DNA of 64,000 nucleotides from Candidatus Dormiibacterota bacterium (GTDB taxonomy: Bacteria > Chloroflexota > Dormibacteria > Aeolococcales > Aeolococcaceae), in contig CAVPXI010000007.1 of the NCBI GenBank assembly GCA_963709585.1, positions 256,001 through 320,000 on the forward strand, read 5' to 3'. A model generated the notes under the pieces. The model was not told where the DNA came from and searched no databases. It saw nothing but the letters and a program-made list of their open reading frames with translations. Positions 1 to 64,000 of the stretch are shown in pieces. The position numbers and the translations under genes are program-made. Position 1 is the first letter of the stretch; the number at the start of each line of letters is the position of its first letter.

Positions 1-658
1 CGCCAGCCTCGATGAAGCATGCAGCCTGACGCTCTGGGTCCTGCTCGCCCGTGAGGTGGCGGGCTTCATCGGAGTTGGGCACGAAGAAGTCAACGCTCGG
101 CAGGATCGAGCGGAGGTCGTCCATTGACGCGTGAGTGTCTCCGGGGAGGACTACGTCTAGCAGCGTTTGCGCCCCCGCCCGATGCGCTGCGTCGAAGAGT
201 TCGACCACCGCTTCAGGGGGGAGGCCGGGCAGCACCAGGTATCCACCGAGGTAGACCACATCGATACCGGACGTGGCTCCCGGGCCGAAGTCCTGTCCCG
301 TGAGGTCCGCGTTAGCGCCCACGGTGTGGATGTAGCGCCGGTCTTCGCCGGCCACGGGAACGATCACTGTCTTTGCCGTGCCCATGGTCTCCGACTGCCC
401 GATGAACGAGACGTCGACACCCAACTCCGCCAGCGAGGAGGTGACGAAATCGCCGAAGGAGTCGCGGCCAACCTTTCCCACGACCCGGGAGCCAACGCCC
501 AATTTCGACAGGACCACCGCGACGTTGGCCGCGCAGCCCCCGGCCCCCATGAGGAAGTCGTCAGTCACCAAGAGCTCACCGGCCTTTGGCAGACGAGGAA
601 GCGGCGGCACGAAGAGATCGCCGACGAGGATCCCCGCACAGAGGACGCGCGAGATCAT
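1..658 (-). CDS. PfkB-family carbohydrate kinase (5' part; runs off window edge)
   Basis: Manual translation from ATG at 658: MISRVLCAGILVGDLFVPP...GAGGCAANVAVVLSKLG...GKVGRDSFG, the PfkB signature 1. ATGA overlap with the upstream regulator stop. Not in the ORF track. Confidence 0.85.
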   Translation of the reverse strand, partial: MISRVLCAGILVGDLFVPPLPRLPKAGELLVTDDFLMGAGGCAANVAVVLSKLGVGSRVVGKVGRDSFGDFVTSSLAELGVDVSFIGQSETMGTAKTVIVPVAGEDRRYIHTVGANADLTGQDFGPGATSGIDVVYLGGYLVLPGLPPEAVVELFDAAHRAGAQTLLDVVLPGDTHASMDDLRSILPSVDFFVPNSDEARHLTGEQDPERQAACFIEAG

Positions 659-1653
659 GAGCGCGCTGAAAGTTCGAGCACGGTGCGCGCCGTGGACAGA
701 TCGGTGACCAGGACGTTCACCATGCCGCTGCGCAGCGCACCGAGGATCGCGTCGCCTTTGTCGCGCTCGCTGCAGATCGCGACAACGCATTTGATGGCCT
801 CGAGATCCGCTCGCCCGATCGCCACGACGCGGTCCCCGATGCCGTCGATAACGGTGCGGCCGCCCGCATCGAAGAACGAGCCGAGGATGTCGCCGACCGC
901 TCCGCGATCGCGCAGCCTGCGCATCTCGGACACCGAGAAGCAGCCCATCCTCACGACCGCGCTGTCATCCCGAGCGTTCCCGATCCCGATCAGGGCGACG
1001 TTGGCCGCTCGAGCACGCTCGAGGACATCGCGCACGTCGTCGTGATTGATGAACGCATCGCGCACCGCCGGCGTCTCGGCATACGCAGGTGCATACAGCA
1101 CCTCGGCGGTGCCGGCAAACGCCTCGGCGAGGCGGCGACAGATCTCATTCGGGTTGACGCCCGTGTCCACCAGCGGCGACCCTCCGATGGCACTGACAAA
1201 CGTCGCAGCCCGAGGTGTAGGAGTGCCGACGAAATCGGGCACAGCGCCGACATTCCTGCCCATGCCCAGCGCAACCACGTCTCCGTCGCTGAGTTGACGC
1301 TTGAGGAACCCGGCGGCCGCCCGCGCCACTGACGCTCGCTGGCCTGCTTCGTCGCTCTGATCGTTGACCAGAAGGACCTGGTTAAGTCCGAACTCCGAGA
1401 CAAAGGCCGCCTCCACCTGGAGGCCGATGTCGGGGTGCACATTGACTGTGATCTCCACGATTCCAGTCATTCGGGCGCGATCCAGCAAGCGTCCGACCTT
1501 GGGCCGTGAGAGACGAAGAGAGCGAGCCACCGCTTCCTGTGTCATCCCCTCCAGGTAGTACTGCGAGGCGACGCGGGTCATCAGCTCGATTTCACGGTCG
1601 ACGCCCCGTACCCGGCTCATTGCGAAATGCGGTGTACCGTCACGCGTGCTCAT
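655..1653 (-). CDS. SorC/LsrR-family sugar-binding transcriptional regulator
   Basis: N-terminal HTH (YYLEGMTQEAVARSLRLSRPKVGRLL) plus sugar-binding domain (GAVGDILGSFFD). Confidence 0.9.
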   Translation of the reverse strand: MSTRDGTPHFAMSRVRGVDREIELMTRVASQYYLEGMTQEAVARSLRLSRPKVGRLLDRARMTGIVEITVNVHPDIGLQVEAAFVSEFGLNQVLLVNDQSDEAGQRASVARAAAGFLKRQLSDGDVVALGMGRNVGAVPDFVGTPTPRAATFVSAIGGSPLVDTGVNPNEICRRLAEAFAGTAEVLYAPAYAETPAVRDAFINHDDVRDVLERARAANVALIGIGNARDDSAVVRMGCFSVSEMRRLRDRGAVGDILGSFFDAGGRTVIDGIGDRVVAIGRADLEAIKCVVAICSERDKGDAILGALRSGMVNVLVTDLSTARTVLELSARS

Positions 1654-3645
1654 CTAAATCACCCGCTCGTTGCCACCGTCGACCGGAACTTGCGCACCGG
1701 TGGTCTTTGCGAAGGCAGGCCCACACATGGCCGCGCACATCTGCGCGACGTCGTAACTCGTCACCTCCACGCGCAGCACGTTATTGGCTCGGTACTCCGC
1801 GGTACTCAGGCCGTACTCGCGCGCGCGCGCCTCGACGATCTCCTCCGACCACAGCGCGGTGTCGAAGACCGCGTTGGGATGGATCACGTTGACCCTGATC
1901 CGATCCGCGCCCCACTCGAGAGCGGCCACGCGCGCGACCTGGGTGAGTGCTGCCTTAGAGGCCGAGTACGCGGCCGCGCCGGGACCTGGGGCTGCGACGT
2001 TTTTCGAGCCGATCACGACAACTCTGCCACCGCGAGGCGCGAGTCGCAGCAGCGGGTGGAGGTGGTGCAGGAGGACGACCGAAGCTTCGACATTGACGTC
2101 CATGACCGCACGCCACGCTCCCAATTCCAGGGCATCAAGGCGCTGACTGGGCGGGAAGACGCCGGCGTTGAGGACGGCGATGTCGATGCCACCGAACCGT
2201 GTGATGCTGGCCTCGATCGCGGTCGTCACCTGTTCGGGATTAGTCACGTCGCACTGGAGGCCGAGCCATGCGGGTCCGCGGGTGACGCTTGCAACGTCCG
2301 GATTGAGATCCAGACCAACGACCGCGGCGCCTTGCTGCAGCAGGAGTTCCGCACAGGCGCGCCCGATACCAGACGCTGCTCCTGTGACCAGAGCGACCTC
2401 GCCAGTAAGTGGCGGCGGCGTGCCCTTTCCGAGCTTGGCCTGCTCCAGGTCCCAGTACTCGACATCGAAGACGTCCGCAGCTGAAAGGGCACTGTAACCA
2501 CCGAGCTCGGTTGCGTCGAGGATGATCTCGATGGTGTGCCGGTAGATGTCCGAGGCCACGGACGCATCGAGCGCGGATCGTCCTGCCGAGACCACACCGA
2601 TTGTTGGGTCGATGACGACGCGAGGTGCTGCGTCCAATATCCTGAGCGGCACTGCCGTTCTGCGCGCGTGTTCCGCGAAGTACCGCTCGTACTCGGTTGC
2701 GTAGGCCGCGACGTCACGCCCCAGGATCGGCAGCCGCTTGGTGCGGATCACGTGGTCGGGCGTCGCCGGACCCTGCTGAGAAACCACCGACACATCGGCA
2801 CGATTGGCAAAGGCAACCGCGTCCGGCCCATCGTCGACCTGCAGAATCATCGGCGTTCCGGCCACGTCCGAGAGTTCGCGCCGAAGGCCGGCGACTTCCA
2901 AGGATGAGTAAGAGCTCACTGCCGGCGCGGACGGTCGGCTCCTGCCTCGGACGTGCTCGTCTATGTATGACTCGGCCAGCGCGACCATGTCGATCATTCG
3001 CTCATACAACTCGCGAGCAGTCGGAGCCCAAGTGAAGATGCCATGGTTCATCAGCACCATTCCGATCGTCGCAGCGCCATGCAGCCGCGGGTACATGTCG
3101 GCGCACAGGGCGGCCAGCTTGAATCCGGGCATCACGTAGGGGATGCGCAGCAGATGATCGCCGTAGACCTGCTCGATCAACTCGGCTCCGTGCAAGGAAT
3201 TGGTGAGCGTCAGGAGCGCGTCCGCGTGGGTGTGGTCGACGTACTTGAACGGGACGATGGCGTGGAGAATCGCCTCGACCGACGGGGCAGGCGCGGTTGG
3301 GTCGATCATGCCGAGGCGGAACTCACGAGCCATGTCCACGTCGGAAAGTTCTGTGAGTTCGGCGAGCGATAACAGCTGCCCCATCCGAACTGGCGCGAAC
3401 CCGGCCGGCTCGATGGTGGCCAGATCCCAGCCACTGCCCTTGACCCAGAGGGTGTCCTCCTTGTCACCAAAGATGTTCGTCTCGGTGAGCTTCACCGACG
3501 TGTTGCCGCCGCCGTGGAGCACCAATCTGGGGTCCTGACCCAACAGGCGCGACGTGTATGCCCGCAGGTCCAGCACCGTCTGACACGCGGCTGCTTGCTC
3601 GTCGTCCCAGCGACTGGTCACCCGCGGCGGTGCGGTGGTGGTCAT
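1654..3645 (-). CDS. bifunctional class II aldolase / short-chain dehydrogenase (RhaD/SDR-like)
   Basis: HGGGNTSVK, PSVEAILH, HTHAD and NHG aldolase motifs; SDR TGAASGIG, NAG and YSASK motifs. Confidence 0.9.
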   Translation of the reverse strand: MTTTAPPRVTSRWDDEQAAACQTVLDLRAYTSRLLGQDPRLVLHGGGNTSVKLTETNIFGDKEDTLWVKGSGWDLATIEPAGFAPVRMGQLLSLAELTELSDVDMAREFRLGMIDPTAPAPSVEAILHAIVPFKYVDHTHADALLTLTNSLHGAELIEQVYGDHLLRIPYVMPGFKLAALCADMYPRLHGAATIGMVLMNHGIFTWAPTARELYERMIDMVALAESYIDEHVRGRSRPSAPAVSSYSSLEVAGLRRELSDVAGTPMILQVDDGPDAVAFANRADVSVVSQQGPATPDHVIRTKRLPILGRDVAAYATEYERYFAEHARRTAVPLRILDAAPRVVIDPTIGVVSAGRSALDASVASDIYRHTIEIILDATELGGYSALSAADVFDVEYWDLEQAKLGKGTPPPLTGEVALVTGAASGIGRACAELLLQQGAAVVGLDLNPDVASVTRGPAWLGLQCDVTNPEQVTTAIEASITRFGGIDIAVLNAGVFPPSQRLDALELGAWRAVMDVNVEASVVLLHHLHPLLRLAPRGGRVVVIGSKNVAAPGPGAAAYSASKAALTQVARVAALEWGADRIRVNVIHPNAVFDTALWSEEIVEARAREYGLSTAEYRANNVLRVEVTSYDVAQMCAAMCGPAFAKTTGAQVPVDGGNERVI

Positions 3646-3646
3646 G

Positions 3647-4186
3647 TCACGTTGCCCCACTCCTGAGGTCGTCCGCGACTACTGACGATTCCTGCCCGGC
3701 ACGCTCGACGTCGCGGACGGTGATGACACCATCCTGGCCAGTGCCGGCGAGAGTGGTCAGATCAATGCCAAGGGCGCTCGCCAGCCGCCGCGCGGCCGGC
3801 AGTGCCACGACTCTGCCTGGTGCTCTTTCTGGCGAGCGACGCTCGGGTTCCGCGCGCGGAGCGACCGTGGGTGCCGGGATCTCGCCGACCGCGACGGACA
3901 TCGGGATGTCGGCAGTACCAGTACCGGTGCCGTCCGGCACCGCTTCGCCTGGAACGCCGATATAAGCCACCGGCGAACCCGATTGCACAGTGTCTCCAGC
4001 ATCGCGGAGGACCTTCAGCAGCGTCCCGGCGGTGACCGACTCAACCTCGACCTGTGCCTTGTCGGTCTGCACCCTGAAGAGCGACTCTCCAAGTGCGACC
4101 GTGTCGCCTTCCTTCTTCAACCATTCGACGATCACCAGCTCGTCCGTCGTCTGACCTACCGCTGGCATGTCGATCCGGTGCGCCAC
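3647..4186 (-). CDS. lipoyl-domain + E3/peripheral subunit-binding-domain protein (E2-like, no acyltransferase core)
   Basis: Lipoyl motif VQTDKAQVEVES and PSBD motif PAARRLASALGIDL..GTGQDGVITVRDV; the protein ends right after the PSBD. Confidence 0.85.
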   Translation of the reverse strand: MAHRIDMPAVGQTTDELVIVEWLKKEGDTVALGESLFRVQTDKAQVEVESVTAGTLLKVLRDAGDTVQSGSPVAYIGVPGEAVPDGTGTGTADIPMSVAVGEIPAPTVAPRAEPERRSPERAPGRVVALPAARRLASALGIDLTTLAGTGQDGVITVRDVERAGQESSVVADDLRSGAT

Positions 4187-4194
4187 AGTTCTGG

Positions 4195-5241
4195 TCAGCC
4201 TTCGCAACAACGTTGGATCGCGGCCTTGATCCTCGCCATCGACGGCACGACCGTCTGCTCCATCACTGGGGCGACCGGCAGCGGAACGTCATGGCTGGCA
4301 ACTCTCCTGATCGGCGCTTCCAGCGAGAAGAGGCACTCCTCGGCGACCCGGGCTGCGAGCTCGGCCCCCCATCCTCCGGTCAGCGTGTCCTCATGGGCAA
4401 TCACCAGGCGGCCGGTCTTGCGGACTGACGCGAAGATCGTCTCCTCGTCGAACGGAAGCAGCGTCAGCGGATCGATCACCTCGCAGTCGATGCCGTCCTG
4501 GGCCAGCTCCTCGGCGGCCGCGAGAGAACGGTAGAGGCTCATGTGCGTTGCCACCACGGTGACCGAGGTGCCCTCGCGCTTCACCACCGCCTTGCCGATG
4601 GGAAAGAAGTACTCCTCCTCGGGCACGTGCGCGGTCAGATCCATGCCACCGGCCTGCTCGCGCCCCTTGCTCCCGTAGAGCAACTTGTGCTCAAAGAAGA
4701 GGACGGGATCATCGTCACGCACCGCGCTCTTCAGCAGTCCCTTGGCGTGATACGCGTCGGAAGCACATACGACTTTCACGCCGGGCACGTGCACGAAGTA
4801 ACTCTCCGGGCACTGACCATGCTGCGCCCCTCGATTTGCAGTGCCGACCGGGCAGCGCATGACCATTGGGACGCTCAACTTCCCGTTCGACATGTACCGC
4901 ATCTTCGCCGCCTGGTTGACCAATTCGTCCATGCACTCGAAGAGGAAGTCCGCATACTGGAGGTCCGCGATCGGCCGCATCCCCATAAGTGCGGCGCCGA
5001 CGGCGGCACCCGCAATCGCCTTCTCACTGATCGGCGTGTCGATGATGCGGTCGTGGCCGAATTCCTCGGGCAGGCCCAGGTACACGCCGAACGCGCCGCC
5101 GAACCCACCGGGGATGCCGACGTCTTCGCCGATAAGAAAGACCTTCTCGTCGTGACGCATCTCCTCGGCGATCGCTTCGCGCAACGCCTCGGCAATCGTG
5201 AGGCGGCGTTCGGACGTCGAAGGCGCCGCAGCAACGGTCAC
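4195..5241 (-). CDS. TPP-dependent dehydrogenase E1 beta subunit (AcoB/PdhB-like)
   Basis: GEDVG, DTPISE, GAQHGQ and FFEHK motifs. Confidence 0.92.
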   Translation of the reverse strand: MTVAAAPSTSERRLTIAEALREAIAEEMRHDEKVFLIGEDVGIPGGFGGAFGVYLGLPEEFGHDRIIDTPISEKAIAGAAVGAALMGMRPIADLQYADFLFECMDELVNQAAKMRYMSNGKLSVPMVMRCPVGTANRGAQHGQCPESYFVHVPGVKVVCASDAYHAKGLLKSAVRDDDPVLFFEHKLLYGSKGREQAGGMDLTAHVPEEEYFFPIGKAVVKREGTSVTVVATHMSLYRSLAAAEELAQDGIDCEVIDPLTLLPFDEETIFASVRKTGRLVIAHEDTLTGGWGAELAARVAEECLFSLEAPIRRVASHDVPLPVAPVMEQTVVPSMARIKAAIQRCCEG

Positions 5242-6266
5242 GGCGTTGCCTCCCTGCGGATCACGGTGGCGTACGCGTCCGTCAGCGCGTCTTCCGCGCG
5301 CGGAAGCGGTGAGTTCCTCGCGAATTCGATGGCGTCGTCAAGGGTCTCCTCGATCTCGGCGTCCGTTTCATCGAGTGCTTCTGCCCCGAACGTCGAGGCT
5401 AGGCGCTCGCGGAGACGAACGATCGGATCCCGCTCCTTCCATTCGGCCTCCTCCTCCCGGCTCCGATAGCCGCGAACATCGCCGCGACTGTGGCCGGCGA
5501 ATCGGTACGTCTTGAACTCGAGGAGGACGGGGCCAGCCCCAATTCGTGCGTCCGACACCGCACGGAGAGCCGCCTCGCGTACGGCGAGCACGTCCATTCC
5601 GTCGACGATCACTCCGCGCACGCCGTACGCCGCAGCGCGCGCCGCCACATCGGTGACGAGGCTGATCTGGTGGAACGGAGTCGATGCGCCGTAGAGGTTG
5701 TTCTCGCACGCGAACACCACGGGGAGGTGCTCCACCGCCGCGAAGTTCAGCCCCTCGTGGAAGGCACCCTCGTTGCTCGCCCCCTCACCAAAGAAGCACA
5801 CGGCAACCTGGTCGGTCCGCATCAGCTTGAATGCCAGCCCGAGGCCGGTGACCACCGTGTTGCCTCCCCCGACGATGGCGATCGCCGGGAGCATGCCGAC
5901 CGACGGGTCGCCGAGATGCATCGAGCCGCCCTTGCCGCCGCAGCAACCGGTCGCCTTGCCGTAGAGCTCGGCCATTGCAGCTCGCACGTCGACTCCCTTG
6001 GCCAATGCATGGCCGTGTGGTCGATGCGTGGAGGTGATCCAGTCAGTCGGTCGCAGGACGTCGCAGACACCCACCGCGACCGCCTCCTGGCCCTGGCTCT
6101 GGTGCAGCGTCCCCGGGAGTTCACCCTGCAGATAGACGAGATACACGCGCTCCTCGAATCGGCGGATCAACTGCATGCGGCGGTAGAGGTCGAGCTCGTG
6201 TTCAGCGTCGACCTCGTCGGCGATGTGGGTGGGGCCCAAGTCAGCTCTCCTGGTGCTGGAGTTCAT
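5238..6266 (-). CDS. TPP-dependent dehydrogenase E1 alpha subunit (AcoA/PdhA-like)
   Basis: GQEA, STHRPHGH, GKGGSMH, TPP motif FFGEGASN...ENN, YRFAGHS. Start re-placed at ATG 6266, overlapping the fba stop. Confidence 0.92.
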   Translation of the reverse strand: MNSSTRRADLGPTHIADEVDAEHELDLYRRMQLIRRFEERVYLVYLQGELPGTLHQSQGQEAVAVGVCDVLRPTDWITSTHRPHGHALAKGVDVRAAMAELYGKATGCCGGKGGSMHLGDPSVGMLPAIAIVGGGNTVVTGLGLAFKLMRTDQVAVCFFGEGASNEGAFHEGLNFAAVEHLPVVFACENNLYGASTPFHQISLVTDVAARAAAYGVRGVIVDGMDVLAVREAALRAVSDARIGAGPVLLEFKTYRFAGHSRGDVRGYRSREEEAEWKERDPIVRLRERLASTFGAEALDETDAEIEETLDDAIEFARNSPLPRAEDALTDAYATVIRREATP

Positions 6267-7183
6267 TCGGCGCCCGCCTTCGACGCGACCACCGAGCGCC
6301 CGCTCCCGCCGTACTGCTTGATCAGCGAGCGGACCTTGGCGGTCATACGCGCCTGCGCCACGTGCATCACATCCGCGTCGTTGTGGGATCCGAGGAGCTT
6401 GTGCACGTCGGGAGGAGTACCGGCGGAGCGGACCACGGATTCCAGGCCACCCCAGAACGCGTGCTTGAGGACCGTGCCGACATTGAACTTCGCGACGCCG
6501 AGCGCGACCGCCGGCGCCACTCCGGCTGCGGGGAAACTTGTTCCGCCATGGATGACCAGCGGTACGTCGACTCGCTCGTGGATCGATCGCAGGAGTCCCG
6601 TATCGATCGTTGACTCTGCCCCCATCATGATGTGGACATTCCCGACTGAAACTGCCAGACAGTCCACACCGGTCTCCTCCACGAACCGTGCGGCCTCGTC
6701 TGGATCGGTGAGGCTGGCGTGACTGTGATCCACGCCTGACGCCGTCGCTTCCGCCGGACTGCCGAGTTCGCCCTCGACCGCCACGCCCAACTCGTGCGCT
6801 ACCTGGCACAACTCCTTCACCGCGACAATCGCTTTGTCCGGTTGCCAGGAGTGCGTGTCCATCATCACCGCGTTGAAGCCCGCGTCGATGCCACGCATGG
6901 CCTGGTCAAGGGTGTGGGCCTCGTTGAACAGCAGGGCCACATCGACGGAGCTTCGTGCCGCGTAGCTGCGTCCGACGGCACCGAGGAGCTCGATGCCACC
7001 GCGCTCAAGCCACGTCCCTTCCACCATCATTGCGCCGAAACCGAGAATCACCGGCGCGGACTCCTCTTCCGCGGCGGTGAGCACCGCCTCGAGCGAGCAC
7101 GCATCCCACGCCTCGAAGTACCCGACGGCGTAGCCGTCGGACCGTGCCTCGCCCAGCAATCGCTGGAGCGGGACGAGCGGCAT
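6263..7183 (-). CDS. class II fructose-bisphosphate/tagatose-bisphosphate aldolase family protein
   Basis: VEGELG, DCLAVSVGNVH, PLVIHGGT and GVAKFNVGT motifs. Confidence 0.88.
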   Translation of the reverse strand: MPLVPLQRLLGEARSDGYAVGYFEAWDACSLEAVLTAAEEESAPVILGFGAMMVEGTWLERGGIELLGAVGRSYAARSSVDVALLFNEAHTLDQAMRGIDAGFNAVMMDTHSWQPDKAIVAVKELCQVAHELGVAVEGELGSPAEATASGVDHSHASLTDPDEAARFVEETGVDCLAVSVGNVHIMMGAESTIDTGLLRSIHERVDVPLVIHGGTSFPAAGVAPAVALGVAKFNVGTVLKHAFWGGLESVVRSAGTPPDVHKLLGSHNDADVMHVAQARMTAKVRSLIKQYGGSGRSVVASKAGAE

Positions 7184-7302
7184 CTATTGGCTGTCCAACT
7201 CGAACACGTAAATCTCCCTAGGTCTCAATCGCGCGGGTGCCAGCATAGTGGGCCAAGTGAGCAAATATCAAGCGCTTGAGCATTTGCTCAACGAGGTGTT
7301 AG

Positions 7303-8253
7303 TTACCGACTTCCCTGCGCCCGGCGCTTGCCCTCGTGCATGGCTTGAACGCGAGCGACCGGGATGGATCTGCCCTCTTCAAGCAGCTCTGCCCCTAGCG
7401 GCTGTGGCGGCGGCATCCGCATTGCCCATCGGTCGGCATCGCCGAGGTGATGTACGGCGGTGAGCACCGTGAAGTCGGCAGGCGAAATCTCATCCAGCTC
7501 GTCCCAGTCCACTGGAAAAGACACAGGAGCGCCCGGCCGCACACGCGGGCTGTACGCAGCGGCAACGGTTGCCCCGCCGACGCGGGTCGAGTCGACAAAC
7601 ACTTTGCCTGCGCGGTCATCCTTCATGAACGCGGTGGTGACTGTGGCGGGATCCAGTCGCTCGGCTCGTGCGGCGATCGCCCGGGTGGCAGCTGCGGCCG
7701 CATCGATGGACACGGTGCTGTCGATGGGAACGAAGATGTGCAGGCCCTTGGCACCGCTCGTTTTGATGACAGCGTCCAGGCCTTCATCGATAAGGACGCG
7801 CCGTACAACCCGCGCGGCTCGCACGGCGTCGCGGAAGGCATCTCCGTGCGGGGGATCGATGTCGAGCACGAGATACGTCATGTGATCGGGGCTGTCGACG
7901 CGCACCAGCGCCGGGTGATACTCGACAGCGCGCTGGTTACCGAACCACAGCAGTGTCCGCCGGTCATTGCAAAGCGCGTAGGTGACCTCCCGCTTCGACG
8001 ACTCCGCCCACATCGTCACCCGCGGTACCCAGGGAGGCGTGTACGAGGGCAGGTTCTTCTGCATGAAGGCTTCCTGACCCCGGTGCACGCGGATCACCGA
8101 CAGCGCTCGCTCCGCGAGCTCCGGAATGATCCGGTCGGCCACGCTGTCCAGGTAAGTGATGAGGTCTCGCTTGGTTGCCCTCGCCCCTTCGAACAGCGAC
8201 TCGTCGAGGTTGGTCAGCGGCACGCCGAGCGAGGCAGCGTCTGCAAGGCCCAT
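7303..8253 (-). CDS. stand-alone LigD primase-polymerase (PolDom) domain protein
   Basis: FMQKN, LDIDP, KTSGAKGLHI, KVFVD and YSPR motifs. Confidence 0.85.
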   Translation of the reverse strand: MGLADAASLGVPLTNLDESLFEGARATKRDLITYLDSVADRIIPELAERALSVIRVHRGQEAFMQKNLPSYTPPWVPRVTMWAESSKREVTYALCNDRRTLLWFGNQRAVEYHPALVRVDSPDHMTYLVLDIDPPHGDAFRDAVRAARVVRRVLIDEGLDAVIKTSGAKGLHIFVPIDSTVSIDAAAAATRAIAARAERLDPATVTTAFMKDDRAGKVFVDSTRVGGATVAAAYSPRVRPGAPVSFPVDWDELDEISPADFTVLTAVHHLGDADRWAMRMPPPQPLGAELLEEGRSIPVARVQAMHEGKRRAQGSR

Positions 8254-10602: not shown

Positions 10603-11805
10603 TCAAGCTAATCCGGCGCTGCCATGCGCCGGATCGAAGTCCTTGTCGCCGCGCCACACGCCCCAGACGATGGCGAGCGCCTTGCTCATGCAGTGACCAA
10701 GGGAGTTCATCGCTGACTTGCCCGCGGCCCGCTTGCGAGCGTAGTGGGCGCGGATGATCGGGTTGTGTTGCACGCCGACCACCGCCATCCGGTACGCCGC
10801 CGCACGCAGATACGAGTTGCCGGTCTTGGCCATGGTCCAGCTCGTCTCGGGGTTCGCACCCTTCTTCCCTGAACTCTGCTCCTTGGGATGCACGCCTGCG
10901 TAGGCGAGCAACTGGTCGACATCGCTGAAGCGCCAGATGTCGCCGATCTCGGCCATGAGTGTGGCCGCGGTGGACGGCCCGACACCGGGAATCGAGAGCA
11001 GCCGCTGCGACACCTCGCCGTCGAGCAGGGAGGCGACCCGGGTGTCCGCGCTGGCGATCTGCTGGTCGAGCAGGTCGTGCTGCGCAATCAGGAGGCGCAT
11101 CTCGAACCCGACCTGCTGCGCGAGTTCCGGCGCAGCCACCGAGGTCTGAGCCAGCTGCTTGAGCTGGCCGGCCTTGAGCGGTCCGATCGCACGGCCACCA
11201 CCGCCCGGACGCTTGAGCCGAGCCAGGCGGTCCTGGTGCATGCGCGCCACGGCCGCGGCGGTCGGCGCGTGGCGGAGCACCGCCAGGGCGCTCACGCAGG
11301 TCGGGTCGTCCCAGACCTCGCGCAGCTCAGGAAAGCCGATGTCCACCAACCGCTGGATGCGCTGGCAGACCTGGGCCTGCTCACGCACCAAACGCATCGC
11401 GAACCGCGCCGCCTCCTTGAGCTCGGCCCCCACCAGGGGCTCGCTGATCCGCGGCTGGTCGTGCGTTCCCAACGCCGCCAGTGTGCGCGCGTCGGCCGGG
11501 TCGCTCTTGCTCCGCTGCAGCCGGCTCTTGGCGAAGTACTTGGCCTGCAACGGGTTCACCACCGCCACCGGATACCCCTGGCGACGCAGGTGGCTGGCCA
11601 GGTTGAACCAGTAGTGGCCGCTCGATTCCATCACCACCACCTCGATCGGCGCTTCCTGCTTCGTCATCCACGCGTCCAGTTCGCCGAAGCCCTTGCGCTT
11701 GGTGGTGATGGTGAGCACCTTCCGATCCGCCTCGCGCTCACCCTGGCGACACACCGCCGCCGCGCACTTGTATGCCCCCACGTCGATCCCCACCGCCAGG
11801 CTCAT
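10603..11805 (-). CDS. IS110-family DEDD recombinase/transposase
   Basis: RuvC-like GIDVG / VVMESSG / KSDPADA; C-terminal IPGVG, AEIGD and QSSG serine motif; AGGAGG SD before ATG 11805. Confidence 0.95.
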
Positions 11806-59904: not shown

Positions 59905-60587
59905 CTATGGCTGCGTTGACCCGCGGAAGTGACCCTGCTTTACGACCAGCTCATAAGCGGGACCGCCACCAACGACGTCGACGAAGATTTCCTCACTCAG
60001 CGCCGCAAGGACGTCGCTCGGTTCTGTCACACCATCGCGGCAGAAGTTCAGACACGTGTGGGTTCCACCGCCAAGCTTCAGCCGATGGATGCCAAGTGCG
60101 CGACCACGGTCTCGTCGGCGCCCAGCCCGATTGGGCGGCCTGCCTTCCAGAAGCCCGAGCCCACCTCCATACACAGAGGCTCGTGGTCGGCTTCGCCGAA
60201 GAACGGGGGCCACAGGACTCCTCCACAGATCGACGCGTCCTCGTTTCGCCTCGAGCGCGGCTCAGAAACCACGGCCGCCATCGCCAACACCGGCTCCGCA
60301 ACCGCCACTTCAATGGCGGCTGTTGCTGCGCCGGACCCGCCCCTGGCGAACTGCACGTAGCGATCGCTGCGAGCAGCGTCATTGAAGATCACGAATGCGT
60401 CGTGTGTTCCCCGCAGCCAGAACAGAGCCAATGTCATTCGTTTGATCCGCCAAGCGGAACGGTCGGTCTGTTTAGGGACCCCTGCCTCCCACCAAGCCTG
60501 TTCGCCCATCCGCACGCTCCGTCGTCTGGGGCGATATCCCGCGCTTACCGCCGCATGGTGGCGGTCAGGTCTTCTCCGCGGGGGCAC
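59905..60587 (-). pseudogene. hypothetical protein, possibly TY-Chap/YbjN-like, frameshifted near 60080
   Basis: AFVIF..RYVQFA..LCMEVGSG..HLASIG continues in another frame as LKLGG..NF..LSEEIFVDVVG. Family assignment is weak. Confidence 0.35.
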
Positions 60588-61155
60588 CGTGCGTGGGTGG
60601 CGCGGTTGCCGAGGCGGCAGCCGGGAGGCTTATGCCGTCTTCTCGTGACCCTTCTACAAGCGTACACGCGCGGGCGACACCTGCCTGTCGTCAGTGCGAC
60701 GCCCCGGGGATTCTCAGACCCTGGCCGGCAACCGACCGTCGCGATGTTTGCGCTACGTCAGCTCCGCTACGAGACGCGCGTAGTCCTGCGGCGTGCTCGC
60801 ATACAAGGCGATCTCGAAGTCCGGCGGTGACTGGTACGCAGCGAGGATTGCGGACCCACATCCCGAAGCGGAGGTGACCACCGCTCACTCCTGCTCGGAA
60901 CCACGGTGGCGCCGTCGACGGAGCCACCGAACCCGCCCCCCCCAACGGCCGCGTCGAGTAGCGGCTGATGCCAGATTACCCGACCTATTCACGCCCCATT
61001 GATGGAAGCCGATTCGATCCTATTTCGATTGCGCTAATTGATCATCGCGGTTGGTCATCAACGGCTATTTCCCGCAGTGCCGACACCCCGGGCGCAAGAG
61101 TAAAAGCCTCAGTCCGAGGTCGCCTGAATAGCGTAAGCGCGGTTTGGTGTCTATT

Positions 61156-61779
61156 TTAAGCTGTGATCGTCGTCGGATCTAATTTTGTGCGAGGAGGCGA
61201 ATCCTCAAGCGCTAGGCTGTTGATGAACGTACAAAGTCTGGTCGCTTCGTCTTTCTGCAGATCTACTGGCAACAGTATCTCTGCAACGATCCCCTGCCTA
61301 ACCGGAAACGGGTATCTGATCATGCGGCTGCTGGTAGATGTTCCAATGGCTTCCGTATCTAACGTAGACGCTCCTTGCGCGCGTGTCCGAGGGACGCGTG
61401 AACGGGCTGAGGTAGCACGTTCACCCGTTTTAGACCTTTCTCGAAGCTGCGGTCGGTAATTCCTTGGATCGTCCAAATACGACAAGTACAAACTAAGCGC
61501 TCGAAGGAACCGCGACCGATACGCGGCGAGGCTACCCGGAGCGAATTCCTTCTTCGCAAGGTTTTCAAAACGATCAAGAAGTGAATCAATATCGATAGAT
61601 CGTACGTTTATGGATTCCCAGTCTTGACCTTCAACTGATAGAACGCGCTGGACTGCCGCTCGTAAAGCATTCGCGGTATTCCGATTCAACAGGCCCTTTT
61701 CGGCCGCCCAATTCCAATGGTCTACGAAGTCGCGACCAGTCCCGTCTTCAGAACCATGGTCCACTACCACTTTCACCAC
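61156..61779 (-). CDS. uncharacterised protein: helical N-domain (integrase core-binding-like) + small C-terminal domain
   Basis: Intact 207-aa ORF in visibly AT-richer DNA: KGLLNRNTANAL..DIDSLLDRFENL..SLAAYRSRF..; basic linker; YPFPVR..LLPVDLQKDEATRL. Confidence 0.8.
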   Translation of the reverse strand: MVKVVVDHGSEDGTGRDFVDHWNWAAEKGLLNRNTANALRAAVQRVLSVEGQDWESINVRSIDIDSLLDRFENLAKKEFAPGSLAAYRSRFLRALSLYLSYLDDPRNYRPQLRERSKTGERATSARSRVPRTRAQGASTLDTEAIGTSTSSRMIRYPFPVRQGIVAEILLPVDLQKDEATRLCTFINSLALEDSPPRTKLDPTTITA

Positions 61780-61963
61780 ATCCAGTTCGATAACATTATT
61801 AGCTGAATCTGATATTAGAACAATATCGTCAAAAAATCAAGAACCCACACTTGTGACGAAAGCTGCGTAGCCTGCTCGGCAATCTGAACTAAGGGTATGG
61901 CAATACCGGTCACGGCTACGGCCCTTCCGTCCGCTTCTATCTCGTCGCATCAAGGCAGGTTGA

Positions 61964-61992
61964 TTGTATGAGCTATCCAGCTTTGCTATACT
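61964..61992 (+). promoter_or_regulatory. sigma70-type promoter for the tRNA-like gene
   Basis: TTGTAT (61964-69), 17-bp spacer, TATACT (61987-92) with extended -10 TG; ends 7 nt before the tRNA 5' G. Confidence 0.75.
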
Positions 61993-61999
61993 GGAAGGA

Positions 62000-62075
62000 G
62001 CCGGTGTAGCCCAATTGGTAGAGGCAGGTGCCTGCCAAGCACCCACAGGTGAGGGTCCGAGTCCCTTCGCCGGCA
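62000..62075 (+). tRNA. non-canonical tRNA: tRNA-Leu-like body with Gly(GCC) anticodon
   Basis: Acceptor GCCGGTG/CGCCGGC+A73; D-arm GCC-CAATTGGTAGA-GGC; anticodon arm GGTGC-CTGCCAA-GCACC; T-arm GAGGG-TCCGAGT-CCCTT; followed by CCT rather than CCA. Confidence 0.75.
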
Positions 62076-62087
62076 CCTGGGGTACAC

Positions 62088-62117
62088 ATAGGGCCGGGGC
62101 ATGAGCCCCGGCCCTAT
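62088..62117 (+). terminator. strong hairpin downstream of tRNA-like gene
   Basis: Perfect 13-bp stem ATAGGGCCGGGGC-ATGA-GCCCCGGCCCTAT; weak U-tract. Confidence 0.6.
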
Positions 62118-62690
62118 TCGAAGCGACTGGCTTCGCAAGTGCCTGCCAAGCCTTCCGAGAGTACCACTTGCCAGCTTGGGATAATCGTCTCGATAGTGAG
62201 TGCCGACGGGTCAGGCCCTATCGTCTCTCGACCGCGTTCGCGTTCTAAATCAAGGCTCCGATCCTCGCGATTCTGCATTCGAGAACATGGAACTCTCTTC
62301 CCTCGCTCATCACCATCGCCTAGCGCGGTGACTCGAAACGGCTCAGCTTCTACCCCGTTCTGGACTCTAATCGTGGCTCATTCCTCGAGCCGGTGATACT
62401 CGGAGCATGGATGCCCTCGGATCTCAGTGCTGTGGGCTACTGAACCTCTGGTACTTCGGCGGAATCCGACGCAGTGCTCGGCAGGAAGTGGTTCTTGACA
62501 ACTCCGGCCCCGACGTCCTCTGCCTCCCCGAGGTCGATCCCAAGATATCGAGCGCTTCACCGAGGCTTCAGGTTTCTCCTGGTCGCGATGCAGCTTCGGC
62601 GCCAATCTCTCGGGCAGGTCGTTGGCTGTCGCGATCCTTGGGAGCTCACGCCTGACTCCACGAGCTGCGGCCAGCCCTCCGCAGGACGCC

Positions 62691-62830
62691 CGCCACACTA
62701 CGGCGACGTTCGTGCTCGGCTAGGGCGTGCATCCGAAACTCGTCTAAGAAGTGCTTTGGACACGCCACCGTGGCGACTACCCTCGACGTATAGCCGCGCC
62801 ACGCCGGCCATGCACCGCGAGGCCGGCGAG
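62691..62830 (+). pseudogene. tyrosine integrase C-terminal catalytic fragment
   Basis: Manual translation: RHTTATFVLG*GVHPKLV*EVL/GHATVATTLDV/YSRATPAMHREA, i.e. RH..LGH..Y motifs with two stops and two frameshifts. Confidence 0.8.
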
Positions 62831-62889
62831 CACCCGCGACACGATGCTCCGCAAGGTGCCTGGATGACCCTGGATCGCCGAGACGAGAG

Positions 62890-63219
62890 GTGATCCTCTA
62901 TCACGCGACGGCGTCGGATGAGACGCTCACCAGCATCCTCAAGGATGGTTTCGCGGACCACGCGAGCCGATACATGGCCGCCGAGATACACGAAGGGGTT
63001 TGGCTCTCGGACCGACGTCTTTCCGCTGGAGAAGGTGGTCTTTCCGGGCACGAGGCTTTGCTGCGCGTCGAGATTCCCGAGGACGTGATCCGGCAGTACG
63101 AGTGGGTGAACGATCCCTGGGTGGGGTACAGGGAGTGGCTCGTGCCCGCGACGATCGTCAACCGATACCCACGAGAGTATGTCGACGAGTCGTTCGACAA
63201 GTCACATGAGCAAATCTGA
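62890..63219 (+). CDS. small ADP-ribosyltransferase-fold-like hypothetical protein
   Basis: LYHAT...ILKDGF...GVWLS...YREW pattern; GAGAG SD-like upstream. Confidence 0.55.
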   Translation: MILYHATASDETLTSILKDGFADHASRYMAAEIHEGVWLSDRRLSAGEGGLSGHEALLRVEIPEDVIRQYEWVNDPWVGYREWLVPATIVNRYPREYVDESFDKSHEQI

Positions 63220-63228
63220 CCCCTTAGG

Positions 63229-64000
63229 TCACGCCGCCCCTCGTCGGGTCGACGACGGGCACGCGCGCCAATAGGCGCACCCCCAACAGGGCGCCTCAGG
63301 CGGCGCCGCTCGCTCCGCACTCACCAAAGTCGTTAGCAGCTCTTCAACTCCGACCCAGCTATCGTCACCACCGCGATGCACCGCGCCGGTCCGCATCTCC
63401 ATAAGCATCGCCCCCGCGTCGAGACCCAACGCTTCCCGTGTCGCACGCTTGTAGATGGCGAGCTGACGTCCGTACACGGTCAGCGCCTCGGCGCCAAGCG
63501 AGCGGTTTGTTTTGTAGTCGACGACCCAGGCCCGACCTTCGGCGTCGTTGCACAAACGATCGATGAATCCGCGCACCAAAACGGGCCGACCGCCCACATC
63601 GACCGCGAGGTTGACCTCTTGCTCCGTTGCGATGGTCCGCATTCCCGCGACCTCAGTACCGAGGTAGCGCTCGAGCATTCGCTCTGCAGTCGCAGACCAC
63701 ACGGTTACGGCACGCTCGGCTCCGACACTCAGGGTCGCGAGCTCGTTCCAAAGTTCGCACAGGCGCGGGAGGCCGCCAATACCATCTTCGGGCCCGGGCT
63801 GGCGGAACCGTTCGAGGACAGCATGCACGAGGGTACCGAGATCAGCCGCACCGATTGAACTCGCGATCGCAGGCTCGCTCTTGGGCGAGAGGTCATCCGG
63901 AGGCGCCGGCAGGCGCCATTCGAACATATATCTGTAGCGCAATCCGCACTGCGCAAGGACTTCGAGTTGGGAGAAGGACACTACCAACCGTTCCGTCGGT
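63229..64000 (-). CDS. PD-(D/E)XK RecB-family nuclease domain (3' end of probable AddA/UvrD-type helicase-nuclease; runs off window edge)
   Basis: SFSQL..C..RY, GTLVHAVLE, E, GFIDRL, VVDYKT, QLAIY, C..C..C Fe-S-like staple. Confidence 0.85.
   Translation of the reverse strand, partial: PTERLVVSFSQLEVLAQCGLRYRYMFEWRLPAPPDDLSPKSEPAIASSIGAADLGTLVHAVLERFRQPGPEDGIGGLPRLCELWNELATLSVGAERAVTVWSATAERMLERYLGTEVAGMRTIATEQEVNLAVDVGGRPVLVRGFIDRLCNDAEGRAWVVDYKTNRSLGAEALTVYGRQLAIYKRATREALGLDAGAMLMEMRTGAVHRGGDDSWVGVEELLTTLVSAERAAPPEAPCWGCAYWRACPSSTRRGAA

Follow-up and report, generated by a model that had tools for sequence, protein, structure and literature searches.

A tRNA-shaped gene with a copied anticodon arm beside an integrase-like protein: a possible relic of a tRNA-targeting integrative element in Candidatus Dormiibacterota

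Why should a bacterium carry, in a low-GC (guanine plus cytosine) patch of its genome, a tRNA gene with a glycine anticodon on a body that does not resemble tRNA-Gly, back to back with an intact gene for a 207-amino-acid (aa) protein of an unnamed family? The question is raised by a cassette of about 1 kb in a 64,000-nucleotide (nt) stretch of the genome of Candidatus Dormiibacterota bacterium (assembly GCA_963709585.1, contig CAVPXI010000007.1, positions 256,001 to 320,000). We call this whole stretch the window, and positions without a locus label are counted from its first letter. The source assembly comprises 3.52 Mb in 24 contigs with about 66% GC and 49 tRNAs, and is 89% complete. The original prediction for the locus was a leucine-type tRNA which mistranslates glycine codons, with the divergent protein as its repressor or antitoxin. 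In the present work we compared the tRNA, the protein and their relatives, and we arrived at another reading, to which we give about even chances: the low-GC cassette is the stranded remains of a tRNA-targeting integrative element, in which the tRNA-shaped gene serves at the same time as the recombination core.

According to this model, the 207-aa protein would be a DNA-binding relative of tyrosine integrases, encoded by a family gene common to islets in tRNA and transfer-messenger RNA (tmRNA) genes, and the tRNA would be carried by the element, with selection acting mainly on its 5′ half and anticodon arm. The anticodon arm would be the recombination core, its second copy lying right after the terminator hairpin. 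The protein may bind the core copies and steer or repress a tyrosine integrase, which would have its gene alongside in some relatives and be provided in trans in others, and anticodon changes among relatives would be changes of the recombination core rather than of decoding. In this genome the module would have been stranded beside a dead integrase and is probably no longer mobile.

The tRNA and the copy of its anticodon arm

ARAGORN reports a single tRNA in the window, Gly(GCC) at 62000–62077 on the plus strand, and the Rfam tRNA model gives it 50.2 bits at a cut-off of 29, which bears out the cloverleaf predicted at 62000–62075 and its GCC anticodon. The acceptor stem is formed by G1-C72, C2-G71, C3-G70, G4-C69, G5-C68, U6.G67 and G7-C66 and is followed by A73 and then CCT, so that CCA is not encoded. 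The D arm has a three-pair stem and the loop AATTGGTAGA, the anticodon arm has five perfect stem pairs and the loop CTGCCAA, the variable region has 7 nt (5–7 nt across this copy and the two described below), and the T loop, TCCGAGT, has C at position 55 where UUC is canonical. The earlier remarks that the glycine elements G3-C70 and U73 are absent, with C3-G70 and A73 in their place, that the T loop reads TCC and that CCA is not encoded can all be read directly from the sequence. G3-C70, U73 and an encoded CCA are all present in the ordinary tRNA-Gly(GCC) of the host, whose gene is on a different contig. The expression signals of the window tRNA held up in part. An extended −10 motif, TGCTATACT, does end 7 nt 5′ of its first base, but the −35-like TTGATT stands 21 nt from this motif and a sigma-70 consensus scan did not list the site. 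Likewise, the hairpin predicted downstream is present with 13 perfect base pairs (bp) at 62088–62117, but it lacks a T run and the terminator scan did not report it; the only terminator-like site which that scan gave in 61000–62400 was the minus-strand hairpin behind the 207-aa gene.

Does the same tRNA body occur elsewhere? The close relatives of the protein, 54–60% identical, fall into six distinct loci: the window, L003, L014, L015/L016, L017 and L018, as we label them. In two of the five other than the window, L014 and L017, the same tRNA body lies in the same divergent position about 205 nt upstream of the 207-like gene. Its anticodon is GTG in L014 and ACC in L017, in agreement with the idea that homologs might adjoin tRNA-like genes with varied anticodons. 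In the alignment of the three tRNAs, the first 32 positions vary in the D loop only. Identity between the loci in blastn is 81–84% for the tRNA and 65–72% for the 207-like gene, and the intergenic DNA cannot be aligned; the tRNA is the best-conserved DNA of the locus and is therefore under selection, which is strongest in the 5′ half. A −10-like motif just 5′ of the tRNA and a GC hairpin 3′ of it were found in all three loci, the hairpin with a different sequence in each. Every copy is structurally flawed: C55 in the window, U50.U64 and G1.U72 in L014, and an anticodon stem with only three of its five pairs in L017. Their Rfam scores are 50.2, 53.4 and 41.4 bits (window, L014, L017), and ordinary tRNAs in other loci reach 57–68 bits. 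Despite its GTG anticodon, the L014 copy does not have the G-1 and C73 features of tRNA-His. L017 and L015/L016 have both flanks in common, including a 523-aa open reading frame (ORF) and a convergent asparagine synthase gene, and between these flanks L017 holds a 435-nt tRNA module and L016 two other genes.

After the hairpin there is a second, degenerate copy of part of the tRNA, from the D arm to two bases beyond the anticodon loop (copy 2 in Table 1). The last 17 nt of this copy (62135–62151) are identical to copy 1 inside the tRNA at 16 of 17 positions, with the anticodon GCC included, at a spacing of 111 nt. The local alignment over 31 nt scores 32, and shuffled sequences reach 20.9 ± 3.4 with a maximum of 31; in L017, a stretch of 22 nt within the 31 aligned matches at 95%, and a score of 41 compares with 20.5 ± 3.7 and a maximum of 37 for shuffles. 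The copy in L014 reaches the contig end and is cut before the anticodon. Where the anticodon can be read, the copy bears that of its own locus (window GCC, L017 ACC), and D-loop letters specific to the locus also recur in the copy in the window and L014. Since neutral DNA between the loci has diverged beyond alignment, the identity of the copies within a locus must be either recent or maintained. The mismatches in the anticodon stem of L017 begin at the very base at which the repeat stops, and this hybrid-looking stem is what might be expected of a recombinant joint. L017 also has a 17-nt tandem copy of repeat 2, 19 nt away (family D4). It is rare for one body to occur with three anticodons and with a DNA copy that matches the anticodon arm, and this tRNA family may be either a tRNA-shaped portable recombination site or a second bacterial case of dual-identity tRNAs.

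Two further candidates were set aside. Short exact repeats of 12–13 nt flanking L017 and L016 were not used, their number being near chance, and pairing at the RNA level between the 3′ half of the tRNA and the DNA right of copy 2 amounts by eye to matches of 5–6 nt only, which we took as chance.

An integrase-like protein in repeat-flanked islets

The gene of the 207-aa protein, predicted to be intact, is indeed uninterrupted. Its product was modelled with AlphaFold2 (AF2; mean predicted local distance difference test score, pLDDT, 78) as a four-helix domain (residues 15–103), a disordered linker (about 110–150) and a beta-beta-alpha unit (153–189). When the model was compared by VIA with 48,161 PDB representatives, 20 of the top 21 matches were N-terminal core-binding (SAM-like) domains of tyrosine recombinases, with Z of 5.5–8.9 over residues 10–103; they include the N-domain of a Haloarcula integrase (8.9), IntI (8.2), XerA (7.9) and the core-binding domain of lambda Int (7.3–7.4). 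In themselves, Z values of this size are middling, and the weight lies in the uniformity of the match list. Foldseek gave no match at E ≤ 1e-3, and its rows of best probability were again XerA and an integrase-like domain. Also among the fold matches are MrpR (8a0a) and SroF (9rd5), which we take from their PDB titles to be repressors with the integrase fold. The C-terminal beta-beta-alpha unit, modelled alone (pLDDT 87), had no structural match (best Z 2.8). No match to the protein was found in Pfam, NCBIfam or PADLOC at E ≤ 1, the catalytic domain PF00589 is absent, and a profile search of PDB sequences returned rows at chance level only (best E 0.06). No form fused to a catalytic domain was found among proteins of 441–2000 aa, a weak test in which lengths of 364–440 aa were left out. 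On the model, then, the protein has the integrase core-binding fold and no catalytic domain, and the earlier guess of a DNA-binding protein gains a DNA-binding fold.

How large is this family? A profile search of 1.84 billion representatives (clusters at 50% identity) gave 2382 at E ≤ 1e-3, 1158 at E ≤ 1e-10 and 338 at E ≤ 1e-30, and nearly all of the best 150 are 180–220 aa long. In PHROGs the protein matches phrog_2602, whose function is not annotated, at 1.2e-10, and its neighbours in the ESM Atlas are clusters of about 185–190 aa without names. This is a large, unnamed, two-domain family whose members probably bind DNA, and with its at least 2382 clusters it would gain here a first structural and contextual handle, namely a core-binding domain of integrases that stands alone and is linked to tiny islets with flanking repeats in tRNA and tmRNA genes. 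Our literature searches returned nothing specific on a stand-alone core-binding-domain protein in tRNA islets, although such a protein may still have been published.

Matches were found at 72 loci, which form 53 distinct groups, and 29 distinct loci with at least 500 nt of upstream DNA could be used to count nearby tRNAs. A tRNA lies within 900 nt upstream in 6 of these 29, about 0.4 being expected from the density in the host (49 tRNAs in 3.52 Mb). Six islets of 1.8–2.3 kb are bounded by direct repeats, in five cases repeats of a tRNA or tmRNA gene (Table 1), and each holds a 207-like gene; none of the six has an integrase-sized ORF with PF00589. Their cargo is in most cases a Gp49/HigB-like gene with a helix-turn-helix (HTH) gene, in L003 a gene with an NYN domain and in L007 a gene without a family name. 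The 207-like, Gp49/HigB-like and HTH genes overlap in an operon-like manner in most islets, and overlap with co-orientation was seen in L004, L021, L028, L029, L039, L053, L077 and L025/L033; NYN partners are found in L003 and L019. Between L021, L029 and L039 this three-gene cassette is 78–80% identical, and the 200–300 nt from it to each repeat are non-homologous. In L025 and L033, which are 90% identical to each other, a gene for a tyrosine integrase of 341 aa immediately precedes the same three genes, and both loci are collinear with the forms that have no integrase. A large serine recombinase is encoded upstream of the 207-like gene in L037. The 207-like gene is thus the only feature that these very small tRNA-inserted islets all share; it may move them, help an integrase supplied in trans, or regulate the cargo. 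If the protein does steer a recombinase supplied in trans, few known integrative elements would be as small as these islets, which would offer a simple system for the study of tRNA-gene targeting.

Several observations do not fit the relic model well. Among 19 annotated loci, a tyrosine integrase was found only in the L025/L033 element and a serine recombinase only in L037; since integrase-less islets are the rule, the protein may act otherwise than by assisting an integrase. A lambdoid relative, 29% identical, lies between cI and N in Stx1-converting phages, away from int. Only three copies of the tRNA body are known, and the promoter-like site and hairpin which each of the three has of its own would suit an expressed RNA. 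In the window, no repeat matching the tRNA was found left of the 207-aa gene, where the best alignment score was 22 and no better than that of shuffles. The two copies, 111 nt apart, enclose only the 3′ half of the tRNA and the hairpin, no 3′ half of a tRNA follows copy 2, and the layout is not that of standard attL and attR sites. Lastly, the integrase remnant is too short and, at about 500 nt, too far away to be tied to copy 2. We could not derive the layout of the copies from a single integration event. Could it have arisen from a tandem second tRNA which was cut at the anticodon loop, or from an attP-like site kept beside a replacement tRNA? Both routes are possible.

The lambdoid relative corresponds to L087 5983–6516, that is, 10736–11269 in the record of Escherichia phage SH2026Stx1, where it is annotated as hypothetical and is co-oriented with cI. 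The cI–N region of lambdoid phages is the usual place of exclusion genes expressed in the lysogen.

Amino-acid identity and rival explanations

Which amino acid would such a tRNA carry? The acceptor stem with the D arm (26 nt) and the T arm with the acceptor and discriminator (25 nt) were compared with the 49 host tRNAs. The best matches are Leu(CAA) at 42/51 and Lys(CTT) and Leu(GAG) at 39/51 each, and host Gly(GCC) is outside the ten best. With a three-sequence nhmmer profile, Lys(CTT) at 23.6 bits comes before Leu(GAG) (18.0) and Leu(CAA) (16.3). By eye, the D loop is the same in every letter as in host tRNA-Leu(GAG), and 15 of 17 positions agree in the T arm; one base inserted into a standard four-pair arm would, however, give the same D arm. 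A Leu-like body is our best guess, by a small margin, and so the leucine body proposed earlier stands in that the body is not Gly-like and matches Leu(CAA) best, but is weakened by the closeness of Lys(CTT), which nhmmer even prefers. The proposed model for this body, a short-variable-arm actinobacterial tRNA-Leu(UAA), found no confirmation. The existence of a short-arm bacterial tRNA-Leu could not be confirmed, all five host tRNA-Leu genes have long variable arms, and among eight genome records of protein relatives six bear a Dormibacterota title, one is a betaproteobacterial metagenome-assembled genome and none is actinobacterial. As in tRNA-Leu, A73 is found in the window, L014 and L017, but neither a long variable arm nor a Leu anticodon is. 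As in tRNA-Gly, the anticodon is GCC with C35 and C36; a Gly-like body, G3-C70 with U73 and the T-loop UUC are missing. The three host tRNA-Gly genes all have G1-C72, C2-G71, G3-C70 and U73, and the window tRNA shares only the first two pairs with them. As a separate observation, host tRNA-Tyr(GTA) (contig C6, 167142–167218) measures only 77 nt including CCA, so its variable arm is short; the variable arm of bacterial tRNA-Tyr is normally long.

The argument that glycine identity is lost was correct as to the missing G3-C70 and U73, but it used the rules of Escherichia coli, whereas the host glycyl-tRNA synthetase (GlyRS) is of the dimeric type (TIGR00389, 263 bits, above the cut-off) and no glyQ was found in the host. 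Dimeric GlyRS often pairs with A73, as stated in part of PMC3990555. In an excerpt of PMC9976931, the glycine consensus is given as G1-C72, C35 and C36, and the archaeal GlyRS of Aeropyrum pernix is described as able to do without A73. With a dimeric host GlyRS, the glycine rules of E. coli are therefore not directly transferable, and A73 is a weaker bar than was assumed. For leucine, the same excerpt (PMC9976931) reports that the E. coli leucyl-tRNA synthetase (LeuRS) ignores both the anticodon and the variable arm, and that leucylation in E. coli requires A73 and the contacts G18:U55, G19-C56 and U54:A58, of which G18:U55 would be broken by C55 in the window tRNA. Judged from these features, charging with glycine is at least as plausible as charging with leucine.

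Could this simply be an ordinary accessory tRNA-Gly on mobile DNA, which is charged through C35, C36, G1-C72 and C2-G71 and adds decoding of GGC and GGU, with the repeat as an incidental partial duplication and the neighbour gene as unrelated cargo? The dimeric GlyRS, the glycine consensus, the −10 motif and hairpin of its own and the Rfam score above the cut-off all argue for such a tRNA. We nevertheless consider it rather unlikely, since the relatives bear GTG and ACC on the same body and GTG is not a glycine anticodon, nor is the L014 copy a tRNA-His; the pairing with the same protein family recurs at three loci, C55 is joined by the flaws of the L014 and L017 copies, and an incidental duplication leaves unexplained why each repeat carries its locus's own anticodon. 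The originally proposed toxic tRNA, of leucine type or blind to its anticodon and opposed by the divergent protein, can account for one body with three anticodons in the same divergent layout. It is consistent also with the body that is not Gly-like and best matches Leu(CAA), with A73, with the D loop and T arm of tRNA-Leu(GAG) and with a LeuRS that ignores the anticodon. The DNA-binding fold of the protein and the partnership of many relatives with RNase-type toxins (Gp49/HigB-like, NYN) would suit it too, and dual-identity tRNAProX offers a precedent in what an excerpt of PMC10404621 describes. Against it stand the narrow margin over Lys, the contact lost through C55, the broken anticodon stem of L017 and the mispairs of L014, and the absence of a synthetase gene nearby, unlike tRNAProX. 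Moreover, 26 of the 29 distinct loci have no tRNA in the divergent position and the family occurs in repeat-flanked islets of ordinary tRNA and tmRNA genes, PADLOC gave no match, and the DNA copy of the anticodon arm is left without an explanation. Nor is this a type II toxin-antitoxin system, in which two small genes are co-transcribed and one product has a known toxin fold: here gene and tRNA point away from each other, the protein showed no match to any family of toxins or antitoxins, and the Gp49/HTH pair downstream of relatives is missing from the window. Because of the family context, the flaws in three of three tRNAs, the type of GlyRS and the duplicated anticodon arm, we disfavour the toxin-antitoxin or abortive-infection module and regard it as highly unlikely.

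A regulatory role deserves a hearing as well. The family might consist of DNA-binding regulators or third components of small defence or addiction cassettes whose toxic partner varies (HigB-like, NYN RNase or others), with nearby tRNA genes as mere landing sites of the carriers and the window tRNA as cargo tied to an RNase conflict, for example as a replacement or decoy. The overlap and co-orientation with Gp49/HigB-like and HTH genes, the NYN partners, the distant relative in the lambdoid immunity region with its exclusion genes and the presumed integrase-fold repressors among the fold matches are all in line with such a role. However, the window cassette has no toxin gene, PADLOC is silent, and a regulator of cargo leaves unexplained both the copy of the anticodon arm and why this gene alone is common to repeat-flanked islets of differing cargo; we think this role quite unlikely. 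A bolder thought, and a very doubtful one, is that the family itself confers mobility on a new class of elements of 1–2.3 kb which have no integrase, insert in tRNA and tmRNA genes and can be re-aimed. The protein would then recruit a recombinase of the host or a helper, or use chemistry of its own, the anticodon-arm copy at the module edge would set the recombination site as DNA or RNA, and a change of the "anticodon" (GCC, GTG, ACC) would re-aim the element.

The surroundings of the cassette and its likeness to known systems

GC is 0.49–0.53 in 61000–62000 and 0.63–0.67 on both sides. The 101-nt stretch around the tRNA was present in none of 40 relatives, of which 24 are same-genus genomes, and the conserved pattern of the tRNA body was found in none of 400 genomes of the phylum and none of 373 other genomes of the class. 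There was also no match to the tRNA body in IMG/VR (pattern search) or in phage records (blastn), and nhmmer found no further copy among all fetched loci of protein relatives. These absences indicate that the tRNA is foreign to the host lineage, and on the same comparisons the low-GC patch is unique to this genome. Foreign composition with a patchy distribution, by which tRNA-inserted islets are recognised, is thus seen in the window cassette. The claim of an AT-rich cassette beside a dead integrase was also borne out, by the GC dip and by a remnant around 62650–62800(+) which in three-frame translation has two in-frame stops and one frameshift; judged against the consensus motif, a stop codon presumably stands where the catalytic Tyr is expected. 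An empty site could not be defined in the genus, the region being too rearranged.

Table 1. Coordinates of the cassette and its neighbours in the window and of the repeat-flanked islets of the protein family (positions with an L label belong to that locus)
Feature	Position	Strand	Remarks
Low-GC patch with cassette	60950–62200		GC 0.49–0.59 vs 0.63–0.67 on each side
Terminator-like hairpin, T-rich tail	61107–61119	−	about 40 nt 3′ of the stop of the 207-aa gene
Intact 207-aa gene	61156–61779	−	ORF list
Divergent intergenic region	61780–61999		extended −10 TGCTATACT at 61984–61992 on + strand
tRNA gene	62000–62075	+	anticodon GCC (62034–62036); ARAGORN, Rfam, sequence
Repeat copy 1, in the tRNA	62024–62040	+	D-stem end, 5′ strand of anticodon stem, anticodon loop plus 2 nt; repeat search, family D1
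Perfect GC-rich hairpin of 13 bp, taken as tRNA terminator	62088–62117	+	inverted-repeat search (pair I3; in L017, pair I2)
Repeat copy 2	62111–62151	+	degenerate copy of 62009–62040 with 9-nt insertion; alignment, repeat search
Possible third degenerate core-like stretch CACTTGCCAGCTTGG	62166–62180	+	by eye; low confidence
Integrase C-terminal remnant	about 62650–62800	+	three-frame translation; about 50–65 codons
Anticodons of the tRNA body	window; L014; L017		GCC; GTG; ACC
Islet L020–L023, tRNA-Lys(TTT)	L021 1849–3830		repeat from anticodon loop to 3′ end; 1.94 kb
Islet L039, tRNA-Ser(TGA)	4607–6650		direct repeat 59 nt; 1.98 kb
Islet L003, tRNA-Ser(GCT)	5647–7516		repeat at 3′ end, 17 nt; 1.8 kb
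Islet L077, tRNA-Ile(GAT)	626–2928		repeat = last 30 nt; 2.27 kb
Islet L004, tmRNA 3′ end	5689–7553		repeat 76 nt; 1.78 kb
Islet L007, hairpin	2471–4312		repeat 38 nt; 1.8 kb

Pieces similar to the integrase remnant (window 62679–62872) are 78–79% identical in two same-genus genomes and 72% in a third. One of them, at about 1501–1694 of L068, lies about 500 nt from a tRNA-Leu(GAG) gene (2189–2275, minus strand), and because of this neighbourhood it is probable that the integrase family of the remnant targeted tRNA-Leu. The remnant was considered as the partner of repeat copy 2 and rejected on account of its distance, its short length and this piece beside tRNA-Leu(GAG). About 500 nt left of the cassette, a full-length SAM-IV riboswitch (60536–60650, minus strand; Rfam RF00634, 65.4 bits, cut-off 38) precedes a short minus-strand ORF which matches no known family. 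On the right, an intact ORF of 109 aa (62890–63219, plus strand; third-position GC 0.75, no Pfam match) sits between the remnant and a helicase-nuclease gene. This is one of two AdnAB/AddAB-like helicase-nuclease genes (window 63229–64000 and L001 3229–19392, right of the window), after which come a DUF499 ATPase, a large protein with a weak methyltransferase match and a helicase with a NOV_C domain; the cluster looks like a defence island. Lastly, the intergenic stretch 61744–61950 has a version about 89% identical (23 differences in 207 nt) on a contig of run X2, which diverges from the window left of 61744, so that a variant of the promoter region exists in another context; the contigs compared were short fragments, and no joints were seen in them.

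To which known systems does the cassette come closest? With tyrosine recombinases the protein shares the four-helix core-binding fold of residues 10–103, but it has no catalytic domain with Arg, Lys, His and Tyr (PF00589) and only the beta-beta-alpha unit of about 40 residues after the linker. With integrative elements inserted in tRNA and tmRNA genes the likeness is that the segments holding the relatives have direct repeats of the target gene on both sides, beginning in the anticodon loop (L021, L039) or taking in the 3′ end (L003, L004, L077), and that the window shows a low-GC, genome-specific patch with an integrase remnant beside it. Williams reportedly distinguished, in 2002, insertion sublocations of tRNA-targeting integrases in the anticodon loop and in the T loop and 3′ end. 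The islets of the relatives differ from such elements in being only 1.8–2.3 kb long and without an integrase, and the window differs in that the repeat runs towards the 5′ side of the tRNA and stands 111 nt 3′ of its match in a complete tRNA, with no displaced 3′ half. CIME-type elements are non-autonomous integrative elements mobilised in trans, and the islets resemble them in their att-like repeats at the ends, the lack of a recombinase gene and the integrase-bearing relatives L025 and L033. What sets them apart is the conserved core-binding-domain protein, which is undescribed for such elements within the literature we searched; the mobility of the islets is putative and no helper was identified. 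For tRNAProX of Streptomyces and Kitasatospora, the likeness in what an excerpt of PMC10404621 reports is one body with several non-matching anticodons and a patchy distribution, but the tRNAProX genes adjoin a dedicated isoform of prolyl-tRNA synthetase. No synthetase domain was found among the neighbours of the window tRNA, which has the integrase-like DNA-binding protein beside it; the window-type tRNAs, known here from their sequences, differ also through flaws in all three copies and an anticodon arm duplicated as DNA. These three, tRNA-inserted islets, trans-mobilised elements and tRNAProX, are the nearest kinds that we could name, and the window departs from each of them in at least one of the defining features tested.

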